Source: a virus. From it: 64,000 nt of DNA. Below are positions 41,520-44,153 of this stretch, in pieces; position 1 is the stretch's first letter, and each line of letters starts with the position of its first letter. Below the pieces are notes generated by a model that searched no databases, had not been told where the DNA came from, and was given only the letters and a program-made list of their open reading frames with translations. Where the stretch lies: the IMG/VR virus record IMGVR_UViG_3300020733_000010, positions 1 to 64,000 of that record, one strand, 5' to 3'. A program made the position numbers and the translations under genes.

Positions 41520-42506
41520 TTATACTAGGTTTTCTTTAAAAATCAACCACGCATTTTCCCAATTCCATCGTTGACTACCTTCTAGTACTTTAGCTCTGTC
41601 TAATAATGAGGCGTTCATTACTGCAAATTTTAAGCTATTATGCATACAACCTGTAGCACCTTCATCAATTACATCTAATGGACCGGGTGCTGGGAATGCT
41701 GCAACAGGTGTTCCGCATGCCATTGCTTCAATCATTACTATACCAAATGTTTCCCAGACACTAGGGAACACGAACACATGTGCCATTCTATAATAATCTG
41801 CTAACTCATGTCCTGTTTTGAATCCAACGAATTCTACATCGGTATATCTGGCTTCATATTCTTTACGCATAGGTCCATCACCTACCATAATCTTACGAGC
41901 GCCTGGCATATCTAATTCAAAGAATTGTTCTAGGTTCTTTTCTTTACTAACACGACTAACACATACTAGAATCATTCGTTTGCTTAGTTCACTAACACCG
42001 GGATGAAATATTGTACGGTCAACACCTCGTGTCCAGGGTATAACTTCGCCCTTGAATCCTTTTTCTTTCAACTCACGTACCATTGTGTCAGTTGTAGTCA
42101 ATATCTTTTTTGACTTAGCATGAAACCACTTGACATACTTCCATGTAATAGATTCAGGTACGCCTAATATCTTTTTTATACCTTCAGGAAAACGGGTATG
42201 ATAAGCAGTATTATAGCTCCTGCCAACCAATGAAAGATACCTTCTAGCGTACAGACCGAGAGGACCCTCTGTGGCGATGTGGATATGATCCGGATTGATC
42301 TCCTTAAGTATCTTGCCCATCTTCCGGGGATAGGCAATCTTGACCTCGTTATACTTAGGGCAATCAATGTAGCCGAACCGCCCGGGATCAACATATACAA
42401 AGTTATAACCGTCCAAAAGCGCACACGCTTCAATGTTTTTATATGTTGTGACAACGCCATTAATCTGATCCTTTAAGTTATCAGTTACAATGAGTACAGT
42501 TTTCAT
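41520..42506 (-). CDS. GT4 glycosyltransferase, Agt-like (glycosyl-diacylglycerol synthase type)
   Basis: VTD....INGVVTT, IHIATEGPLG, YHTRFPE, SRVSKEKN, ETFGIVMIEAMACGTPVAAF. Confidence 0.88.
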   Translation of the reverse strand: MKTVLIVTDNLKDQINGVVTTYKNIEACALLDGYNFVYVDPGRFGYIDCPKYNEVKIAYPRKMGKILKEINPDHIHIATEGPLGLYARRYLSLVGRSYNTAYHTRFPEGIKKILGVPESITWKYVKWFHAKSKKILTTTDTMVRELKEKGFKGEVIPWTRGVDRTIFHPGVSELSKRMILVCVSRVSKEKNLEQFFELDMPGARKIMVGDGPMRKEYEARYTDVEFVGFKTGHELADYYRMAHVFVFPSVWETFGIVMIEAMACGTPVAAFPAPGPLDVIDEGATGCMHNSLKFAVMNASLLDRAKVLEGSQRWNWENAWLIFKENLV

Positions 42507-43390
42507 TGGTTTAATCTAAATCTAATATATTCTGTGATGTGGTCAGCTACATCAACTTGACAATACTTTTCAAACCCACTAAAGCCAGGGTTACTATTTG
42601 CTTCACATACTACAAACCCTGTTTCACTAAACAACAAGTCAACACCGGCAATGTTTAGTTCAAGTACTCGTGCTGTTTCTCTAGCAAGATATTCAATCTC
42701 TGGTGTAACTTCATAGTTACTGCCTGTGCCACCACCTGTGATGTTTGCTCTAAAGTCACCTTCTGGTGCTATTCTACGCATAGCACCAATCACTTTGCCA
42801 CCTACTACAAATACACGCAAGTCTTCACCTGGCTTAGTTCCCATGTATTCTTGCACAATCATTGTTTTCTTTGCACCAAGTGTATCAATGAACTCCATTA
42901 GTTTCTTATAGTCACGCTTGCGTTCACACAGATATACACCTTCGCCATAACTACCTGTAACAAGTTTAACAACACAAGGAAAACCTATATGATGCTCTAC
43001 TAATCCATCATCAATAGGATAACGAACCATCATTGTTTTGGGAATAGGAATTTTGTTTGCAGCAAGTATTTGACCTGTTCTTAGTTTATCTCTAACAACA
43101 TTGATTGGCTTGCTTGGGTTCACACAAGGTACACCCATTTCTTCAAATTGACGAATGATTGCCAACTGAAAAGGTAGTATACCTGCGCCCAATCTAACTA
43201 ATACTAAGTCAGGCTTTGTAAAGTCTTGACCTTTATACTTGATAGACTGATTTAAGTCTTGACTAACAACAATGTCAAAGTCATCAGGGTGACCAACCAT
43301 TGCTGATATATTTTTATTAGTGAAACTTTCAACCAATCGGTTAGTTTCGTATTCGTTTCGTTCTTGTTTAGATAATATTAATACTGTCAT
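42503..43390 (-). CDS. rimK: RimK-family ATP-grasp ligase
   Basis: DKL...L....IPIPKT, PCVVK...GSYG.GV, QEY, DLRVFVVG, DFRANITGGG, GVDLL, CEANSNPGF. Confidence 0.88.
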   Translation of the reverse strand: MTVLILSKQERNEYETNRLVESFTNKNISAMVGHPDDFDIVVSQDLNQSIKYKGQDFTKPDLVLVRLGAGILPFQLAIIRQFEEMGVPCVNPSKPINVVRDKLRTGQILAANKIPIPKTMMVRYPIDDGLVEHHIGFPCVVKLVTGSYGEGVYLCERKRDYKKLMEFIDTLGAKKTMIVQEYMGTKPGEDLRVFVVGGKVIGAMRRIAPEGDFRANITGGGTGSNYEVTPEIEYLARETARVLELNIAGVDLLFSETGFVVCEANSNPGFSGFEKYCQVDVADHITEYIRFRLNQ

Positions 43391-44141
43391 CTTTGTCTTT
43401 CGTCCAGGTTACAATTTCCCATGTACCGTCGAATTTTTCAACTAGTGCCGTGCAACTTTCTACCCAGTCACCATCATTCATGTACACTATATTATCTATC
43501 ATTTTTATTTCGGCATGATGAATATGTCCGCAGATTACACCATCGTATCCTCGTTTTTTGCAGTATCCTGCAAGGTTTCTTTCAAACTGGAAAATGAAGT
43601 CAATCGCTTTTTTGACCTTATGCTTAAGGAAACGGCTAAGGCTCCAGTACCCAAAACCAAGCCTATGGCGAATCCAATTGAATTTGCTATTGAGTGCAAG
43701 GATGAAATCATATGCTTTGTCACCTAAAAAACTTAACCACGGCGCTAATCGTGTAATGCCATCAAACAAATCACCATGTACAACTAGATAATGATTGCCA
43801 TCTAATCCTATATGTTCAATCTGATTAACAACTTCAACATTACCAAAGTTGATATTGTATGGCATTAGTGGGCGCAAAAACTCATCGTGATTTCCAGCAA
43901 TGTATATAACACGAGTGCCACGCTTACTATGCCCAAGAATACGGCGAACGACATTAGTATGGCTTTGTTTCCATCGCCATTTGTTTTGTTGAATCTTCCA
44001 AACATCTAGTATGTCTCCTACCAGATAAAGTGTCTCGCAGTAGTTGTGTTTGAGAAAATTATTTAGTTTTTCTGCTTGTGAGTCTTTAGTGCCTAAATGT
44101 ACATCACTGATAAAGATGCTGCGATAAGTTTTCTGTGTCAT
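43368..44141 (-). CDS. PlcP-like metallophosphoesterase (phospholipase C / LpxH-annotated family)
   Basis: SDVHLG, LVGDILD, GNHDEFLR, HGDLFD, YWSLS, DGVICGHIH, YMNDGDWVESCTALVE. Confidence 0.85.
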   Translation of the reverse strand: MTQKTYRSIFISDVHLGTKDSQAEKLNNFLKHNYCETLYLVGDILDVWKIQQNKWRWKQSHTNVVRRILGHSKRGTRVIYIAGNHDEFLRPLMPYNINFGNVEVVNQIEHIGLDGNHYLVVHGDLFDGITRLAPWLSFLGDKAYDFILALNSKFNWIRHRLGFGYWSLSRFLKHKVKKAIDFIFQFERNLAGYCKKRGYDGVICGHIHHAEIKMIDNIVYMNDGDWVESCTALVEKFDGTWEIVTWTKDKDDSINII

Positions 44142-44145
44142 CTAC

Positions 44146-44153
44146 TATTTATA
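44146..44153 (-). promoter_or_regulatory. late promoter TATAAATA, 4 nt before ATG of the phosphoesterase-rimK-GT operon
   Basis: TATAAATA-GTAG-ATG. Confidence 0.75.

Follow-up and report, generated by a model that had tools for sequence, protein, structure and literature searches.

Several bacterial lineages carry plcP directly followed by agt, the two genes of a phosphorus-sparing pathway of membrane-lipid renovation, and this layout is found in Pseudomonas aeruginosa (PA3219-PA3218), in Burkholderia cenocepacia (BCAL2364-2365) and in marine heterotrophs (PMC8528852, PMC13691135, PMC4796936). The phosphorus-stress genes known from phages, pstS and phoA, act on external phosphate. Here, we analyzed a stretch of 64,000 nucleotides (the window), which makes up the first 64 kb of the 178,144-bp IMG/VR virus record IMGVR_UViG_3300020733_000010, and in which three overlapping genes encode a PlcP-family metallophosphoesterase (MPE), a RimK-family ATP-grasp alpha-L-glutamate ligase and an Agt-type family 4 glycosyltransferase (GT4). 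The record, ~51% complete according to CheckV, comes from a large T4-like phage that is uncultured. Among its proteins are a large terminase, a UvsX-like recombinase and homologs of the cyanophage gp23 capsid protein, the prohead protease, UvsW and the late sigma factor gp55, and a megablast search found no match to the region among GenBank phages. We read the module as a phage-borne version of the bacterial PlcP-Agt pathway, serving to spare phosphorus, and assign this reading a probability of roughly 0.7.

In the mechanism that we propose, the MPE, a PlcP-family protein with an LpxH fold, would cut the phospho-head group off host glycerophospholipids to leave diacylglycerol, which the GT4 would glycosylate from a UDP-sugar to give phosphorus-free glycolipids. 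In other words, membrane phosphorus would be freed for the synthesis of phage nucleotides and the bilayer would be kept. Host PhoB would raise the expression of the operon when phosphate is scarce, as for cyanophage pstS, and RimK would be co-transcribed cargo between plcP and agt, with ribosomal protein S6 perhaps as its target. The suggested lipid swap and its control by phosphate are well supported by comparative evidence, and the phage probably mines the host membrane for phosphorus; the enzyme activities and their substrates, the binding of PhoB, when the genes are expressed and how the phage benefits are what we infer from the comparisons that follow.

The operon had been described in an earlier note, made from the letters of the window alone, as a translationally coupled three-gene unit (metallophosphoesterase, RimK, GT4) behind a leaderless promoter. 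This was borne out at the stated coordinates, where the three genes overlap on the minus strand behind TATAAATA-N4-ATG. Inside the MPE gene (43368-44141, minus strand), 23 nt from its end, is the ATG of the RimK gene (42503-43390, minus strand, between plcP and agt), and the ATG of the GT4 gene (41520-42506, minus strand) shares the letters ATGA with the RimK stop codon.

Sequence comparison places the MPE (257 aa; Pfam Metallophos, E 9.5e-11) firmly in a family of PlcP-like proteins. A whole-library HMMER search at E<1e-30 retrieved homologs in 898 clusters at 50% identity, and a family alignment identified the phosphoesterase motifs quoted in the earlier note as the consensus of this large family, so that they are not chance matches. 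All of the quoted protein motifs are present, with one correction: the YWSLS string had been given with one x too few, and reads YWSLS-x3-K-x2-VK-x-A. Residues D13, H15, D43, N84, H85, H122, H206 and H208 are invariant in an alignment of 50 family members and are all found in the window MPE, in which the metal-binding motifs of the calcineurin-like fold (DxH, GD, GNH[D/E], H and GHxH) are intact. Cellular homologs, at 47-58% identity to the phage MPE, were collected from 80 loci in Pseudomonas, Burkholderia, Paraburkholderia, Cupriavidus, Acidovorax, Caulobacter, Azospirillum and Pelagibacteraceae, and from many alpha- and betaproteobacterial metagenome-assembled genomes (MAGs). Considering that verified PlcPs share only 46-47% identity with one another, these values lie within the range of the family. 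For comparison with the verified proteins SMc00171, PA3219, MED193 PlcP and BCAL2364, we used congeneric orthologs as stand-ins; the phage MPE is 50-55% identical to such orthologs with an adjoining agt (L063 and L065 from the Burkholderia cepacia complex, L040 from Pseudomonas and L046 from Pelagibacteraceae). The open reading frame (ORF) next to the MPE gene in L065, checked as a possible dagK, had no Pfam match. In length, the window MPE compares with 262-305 aa in most of its viral relatives, and in the RimK-bearing variant the C-terminal tail of the MPE is shortened where the RimK start overlaps it.

Database names suggest a different identity for this protein, namely a true LpxH (UDP-2,3-diacylglucosamine diphosphatase), in which case the pair would act on lipid A or lipopolysaccharide (LPS). 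JGI names the homologs 'LpxH', GenBank does likewise for those of the pelagiphage Mosig and Synechococcus phage S-SRM01, tables that record the auxiliary metabolic genes (AMGs) of viruses list lpxH, and the best fold matches in the PDB are LpxH as well. We nevertheless consider this identity most improbable. The NCBIfam equivalog cut-offs for LpxH are 134 bits (PRK05340) and 190 bits (TIGR01854), and the phage MPE, at 48.6 and 36.2 bits, falls far below both; solved LpxH structures match its sequence at E ~0.002 only. Bacteria with the PlcP-like gene have a separate true LpxH: a protein scoring 228-335 bits was found in all five named genomes (Burkholderia, two Pseudomonas, Acidovorax and Chromobacterium), and in four of these a paralog was also seen at 36-55 bits, a range that includes the phage MPE (46-49 bits). 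Two trees, one built with FastTree from 141 rows and one with IQ-TREE from 55 rows using the posterior mean site frequency (PMSF) approach, agree with each other, and in both a fully supported branch of length 5 sets LpxH apart. Grouping with true LpxH had been named beforehand as the outcome that speaks against a PlcP assignment; with 48.6 bits for a cut-off of 134 and this branch in between, the MPE does not group there. The partner GT4, moreover, keeps the residues by which a diacylglycerol glycosyltransferase binds its lipid.

Within the trees, the viral MPEs form one clade (99-100% support in FastTree and IQ-TREE) on a long branch, sister to a group of Mosig and one MAG (95%), and all of these are nested among cellular PlcP-like proteins. 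We also asked if L007, the nearest 'cellular' relative, located on a 348-kb contig, could be a mis-binned phage; its 3.9-Mb genome held no terminase match, and the MAG was therefore treated as cellular, as it appears to be. An AlphaFold (AF2) model of the MPE, with a predicted local distance difference test (pLDDT) score of 87.8, has LpxH as each of its 25 best matches in the PDB (16-20% identity), and the matched part takes in two long lid helices, which correspond to the helical lid that binds acyl chains. The modelled fold is as would be expected for a lipid phosphodiesterase. The earlier view of the phosphoesterase as PlcP-like thus stands, as it groups with a proteobacterial paralog family whose genes adjoin agt-type GT4 genes and Pho boxes, and we predict that it is a phospholipase C acting on membrane glycerophospholipids.

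The gene order around the cellular homologs connects the phosphoesterase to the glycosyltransferase. In ~55 of the 80 cellular loci, the gene directly after the MPE homolog, on the same strand, encodes a protein that is homologous to the phage GT4 over its full length (36-45% identity). Among these agt-bearing loci are members of the Burkholderia cepacia complex, Pseudomonas and Pelagibacteraceae, and in these lineages plcP-agt has been established experimentally (PMC13691135, PMC8528852, PMC4796936). RimK occurs in none of the 80 cellular plcP loci. The phage GT4 itself (328 aa; Pfam Glycos_transf_1 and Glyco_transf_4) can be compared residue by residue with GTcp, the diacylglycerol glycosyltransferase of the SAR11 bacterium Pelagibacter HTCC7211, which has His104-Asp256 as its catalytic dyad, binds the donor through Gly16, Gly82, Gly85, Arg190, Lys195, Thr257, Phe258, Gly259 and Glu264, and binds diacylglycerol through Thr162, Arg163 and Trp320, with His104 also counted. 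The glycosyltransferase next to the PlcP-like gene of the Pelagibacteraceae locus L046 has 15 of 15 published GTcp residues at their exact numbers, and since all are in register we took it to represent GTcp properly. In an alignment with it, the phage GT4 retains 13 of the 14 GTcp residues that mutagenesis has shown to matter (G17, G81, G84, H103, T159, R160, R185, K190, T253, F254, G255, E260 and W316). The window GT4 has the diacylglycerol-binding residues H103, T159, R160 and W316, as do at least 30 of the 31 homologs from viruses. As a GT4 of the GT-B type it also has the Gly-rich motif, and its UDP-sugar motifs read SRVSKEKN and FPSVWETFG, the GTcp-type forms being GRVAxEKN and FPSxTDTFG. 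The assignment of the GT4 to the Agt type in the earlier note is upheld, in that the protein is a full-length homolog of plcP-adjacent transferases with the diacylglycerol- and donor-binding residues of GTcp kept, and we predict that it is a diacylglycerol glycosyltransferase. We also considered a role in defence and set it aside: a weak Pfam match to 'GT4-conflict' (27 bits) spans only the generic C-terminal GT4 motif. PADLOC gave no match for any of the four proteins searched.

Evidence for phosphate control comes from a feature that was missing from the earlier note, a candidate Pho box (CTGTCACATGATTGTCAT) at 44191-44174 on the minus strand, 20 nt upstream of TATAAATA. It is a tandem repeat of CTGTCAC and TTGTCAT separated by ATGA, and it agrees with the Escherichia coli/Pseudomonas consensus CTGTCATNNNNCTGTCAT at 12 of 14 positions. 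On both strands of the 178-kb record it is the sole match to the strict pattern TGT[CA]A[CT]-N5-TGT[CA]A[CT]; with ~1.8 such matches expected by chance, its weight lies in its position rather than its existence. Of 62 non-redundant viral upstream regions, 25 have a strict box no more than 80 nt ahead of the homologous gene, at -38 to -53; the background rate in the rest of those loci is 0.0012 per 80 nt. The half-sites in the 62 upstream regions are exactly 11 bp apart in 25 of 26 pairs, and the intergenic sequences of these relatives are otherwise very diverse. One group of relatives has precisely 10 nt between the end of the box and ATAAATA, which is the classical geometry of a PhoB promoter. 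The cellular homologs point the same way: a match to at least 11 of the 14 positions of CTGTCATNNNNCTGTCAT was found at most 260 nt upstream in 27 of 79 cases, against 0.7% of control windows, and the strict pattern, which is too strict here, occurred upstream of only 3 of 79.

It is also conceivable that the repeat is read by another regulator of the OmpR family or of the phage, or is some other conserved element, so that the operon would not be under phosphate control. Many relatives have TGTAAC or TGTAAT half-sites, which on the other strand become GTTACA and resemble OmpR-type sites, a point in favour of such a regulator, and the distance from the box to the -10-like element varies between ~10 and 20 nt. 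However, the off-target boxes in the viral loci precede phage pstS genes (392-438 bits, with an equivalog cut-off of 339 bits), and both the TGTCAy and the TGTAAy half-site variants are found ahead of pstS, a canonical gene of the Pho regulon, which favours a PhoB-type site over an unrelated regulator. Together with the consensus match of the window box, the constant 11-bp spacing and the enrichment of the consensus at the cellular homologs, this makes control by something other than PhoB quite unlikely in our view, and control of the operon by PhoB probable. The idea of phosphorus sparing, put forward in the earlier note, thus gains independent support from conserved Pho-box repeats that the operon has in common with phage pstS genes.

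Further repeats that resemble Pho boxes were seen in other phages. In several relatives, a conserved ORF of 215 aa (starting MRFEDLAARLVAVEAKL) that has a Pho-box-type repeat to itself is located close to plcP (L138:6706-7353 on the plus strand, and L134, L139, L147, L149 and L155); it had no match in Pfam or NCBIfam, was absent from the 178-kb record when searched for, and is a candidate third member of a phage Pho regulon. In Mosig, the intergene between the divergent pstS and PlcP-like genes (L096 3841-3992; MT647606.1 ~93978-94129) contains the repeats TTTAACA, CTTAACA and CTTAACG, ~11 nt apart, before TATAAT; we take these to resemble the PyTTAAPyPy-type Pho boxes of cyanobacteria.

Directly before the operon, 4 nt ahead of the MPE ATG, stands the TATAAATA element (44146-44153, minus strand), which looks like a T4-type late promoter or a -10 element. 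The octamer is rare in the 178-kb record, with 8 copies for ~31 expected, and 5 of these precede an ATG by 4-5 nt, among them the copies at the terminase gene and at the next ORF downstream (41512). The looser form xTAAATA is found 3-7 nt before the ATG of 24 ORFs, again including the large terminase, and also ahead of the homologous gene in most relatives; in the window, examples are at 18165, 41524 and 44153 (minus strand). A homolog of the gp55 late sigma factor is encoded at 92411-92707 of the record. Taken together, these elements and the gp55-like protein suggest T4-type late promoters that give rise to leaderless or near-leaderless mRNAs, so that the 'late' promoter and the 'leaderless' transcript described for the operon are plausible.

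Late expression is also what one might look for if the enzymes work as we propose and their purpose is to remodel the envelope, that is, to block superinfection, to change the charge or permeability of the membrane, or to tune late lysis. The occurrence of the same motif before the terminase gene and the gp55-like factor are in keeping with such a purpose, and the titles and abstracts of PMC9804370 and PMC9938194 tie lipid remodelling to phage attachment. We regard this purpose as unlikely, considering how the gene is distributed among viruses. Close relatives of the MPE occur on at least 596 IMG/VR contigs, and a protein search returned at least 8000 matches in thousands of clusters, many of them on contigs of 200-524 kb. 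As the informative set, 52 non-redundant viral loci with enough downstream DNA were taken: a GT4 gene follows the MPE gene in half of them (26/52), with RimK in between in 7 of the 26 (~13% of loci), and pstS lies within 5 kb in 5 of the 52. In GenBank, the MPE gene was found only in Mosig (48% identity), S-SRM01 (39%) and two uncultured records; in the first two it is annotated as LpxH, in the latter two it has no annotation, and none of the four records has an Agt-type glycosyltransferase. The Mosig homolog stands back to back with pstS. Both the Pho-type repeats shared with phage pstS and the proximity of pstS itself in several relatives and in Mosig indicate phosphate limitation as the trigger, and the many relatives with plcP alone are a better fit to the harvesting of head groups than to the building of a new envelope.

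Several observations weigh against phosphorus sparing by a PlcP-Agt lipid swap. In two relatives with complete genomes (349 and 353 kb), plcP is present and agt is absent throughout, so that the replacement of lipids by glycolipids is not essential to the phage strategy; in a 525-kb relative, agt lies ~100 kb away from plcP. The phage GT4 has E252 at the position of the catalytic Asp256 of GTcp, and in GTcp the exchange D256E left less than 10% of the activity, a loss of more than 90%. Of the plcP-adjacent glycosyltransferases, however, 22 of 31 from viruses and 7 of 50 from cells have Glu here as well. The window protein belongs to a well-supported viral subclade of 22 sequences with Glu, and a second viral group of 7 has Asp; the donor preference or the rate of the phage enzyme may therefore differ from that of GTcp. 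The tie to the verified SMc00171, PA3219, MED193 PlcP and Atu2297 runs via congeneric orthologs, synteny and published residue numbers, and the phospholipase activity of the viral members is deduced from sequence comparison. As for the promoter, the window box ends 20 nt before TATAAATA instead of the canonical 10 nt, although a weak third in-phase repeat in the gap may fill it; the box runs across the final codons and the stop codon of the upstream ORF (44181-44453), and its first half-site overlaps coding sequence; and a gp55-type late promoter, which here stands alongside a Pho-box-like repeat, needs no activator. The 178-kb record contains no pstS. Lastly, RimK has no role in the lipid model.

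By its profile matches, the window RimK (295 aa) is a bona fide RimK-family ligase, scoring 224 bits for TIGR00768 (cut-off 143), with Pfam RimK at E 7e-50 and Rimk_N at E 8e-17; it matches the Pseudomonas RimK structures 7QYR and 7QYS over its full length (residues 2-290, E 5e-50) and stays below the equivalog cut-off for E. coli RimK (NF007764, 170.9 bits for 331). Among 25 close viral RimK loci, RimK directly follows plcP with the identical overlap in 13, 8 of which also have agt; it precedes plcP in 1, and in 11 there is no plcP or agt within 3 kb. The loci in which RimK follows plcP include some with a divergent plcP (54% identity) and some that lack agt. In the relative L107 (1787-3954), a 54-aa fragment of a GT4 5' end is followed by RimK and then by a full GT4, an arrangement that looks like the scar of an insertion of RimK between plcP and agt. 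We read RimK as mobile cargo that has settled in a Pho-controlled operon, with a functional link to the starvation programme being possible. That it is a working part of a phage phosphate-starvation programme seems to us rather doubtful. It could in that case act in one of two ways: by glutamylating S6 or another target it might reprogram the ribosome under phosphorus stress or, more speculatively, its carboxylate-activating ATP-grasp chemistry might be directed at the glucuronosyl carboxylate of glucuronic acid diacylglycerol (GADG), giving a glycolipid decorated with an amino acid. The ribosome is the main phosphorus store of the cell. We looked for a link between RimK and phosphorus genes in cyanophages too, and rejected it, as RimK stands among structural genes there and has no such neighbours.

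In the literature searched, we found no paper that describes a viral PlcP, and none that pairs PlcP with the term 'auxiliary metabolic gene'; the papers on Mosig and S-SRM01 do not mention the MPE gene. Surveys of viruses file the gene as lpxH, under LPS biosynthesis, and because they and GenBank thereby treat it as a lipid A gene, existing AMG inventories probably misassign it. If our reading is true, the stripping of membrane phosphate and the replacement of the lipid by a virus would represent a way of capturing host resources that is new for viruses. Viruses would then also affect the lipid make-up of membranes, and the cycling of phosphorus in phosphorus-limited waters, in a new manner. 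Two cultured phages carry the gene, pelagiphage Mosig and Synechococcus phage S-SRM01. The hypothesis is directly testable, as Mosig has a cultured SAR11 host and lipidomic assays in E. coli have already served for the bacterial enzymes, such as PA3218 and BCAL2365.

The surroundings of the operon include other genes of interest. Just upstream, ORFs at 45825-46888 and 47427-48440 (both on the minus strand) have, judging from their translations, the look of an AhpD-like/peroxiredoxin pair and of a Gram-negative porin; for the peroxiredoxin-like ORF, the only match was to a PHROG of unknown function. We take these genes for host-like cargo that forms a cluster with the lipid operon. ARAGORN further predicts a tRNA with the anticodon CUA, of the amber-suppressor type and labelled tRNA-Pyl, at 45498-45574 (minus strand), which sits within a 130-aa ORF (45431-45823).

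Compared with known systems, the locus is closest to the bacterial PlcP-Agt operon, as known from Sinorhizobium meliloti (SMc00171), Phaeobacter sp. MED193, PA3219-PA3218, BCAL2364-2365 and the PlcP-GTcp pair of SAR11 HTCC7211. They share the order of a PlcP-family MPE followed by a GT4, largely conserved catalytic and substrate-binding residues and an upstream Pho box (a candidate one in the phage), and the phage copies are 47-58% (PlcP) and 36-45% (Agt) identical to cellular members. In contrast to the bacterial operon, the phage version is encoded by a virus and forms its own clade on a long branch, has RimK inserted and the T4-type TATAAATA directly before the ATG, and carries a GT4 with Glu at the Asp256 position, and many related phages have plcP without agt. 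If true, a role of RimK, together with a leaderless transcript under the dual control of a Pho box and of a late promoter of the T4 type, would constitute a virus-specific extension of lipid renovation, without a cellular counterpart. LpxH (PDB 5B49, 5K8K, 6PH9) shares with the phage MPE the calcineurin-like core, the helical lid insertion and a lipid-linked phosphoester as (predicted) substrate, and is its best structural match; yet at 16-20% identity, and with scores below the equivalog cut-offs, the phage MPE belongs to a separate paralog clade with other genomic partners. RimK shares 45% identity with the protein called 'S6 glutaminyl transferase' in the T4-like cyanophages S-RIM8, S-RIM12, S-RIM32 and S-CAM8, and has in common with these and with RimK of E. 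coli and Pseudomonas the full-length RimK-family ATP-grasp architecture with its N-terminal pre-ATP-grasp domain. Whereas the cyanophage gene lies among structural genes, the window RimK lies within a Pho-box operon, together with plcP and agt. The cyanophage genes pstS and phoA, which are controlled by host PhoBR (PMC10976474), are likewise phosphorus-stress genes of host origin on T4-like phages, preceded by Pho boxes of the host type, and relatives of the phage studied here carry pstS with the same kind of box. The hosts in our case are not cyanobacteria, however, and the box belongs to the CTGTCAT type of proteobacteria; and while pstS and phoA import or scavenge external phosphate, the phage PlcP-Agt module would recycle the phosphorus held within the membrane.

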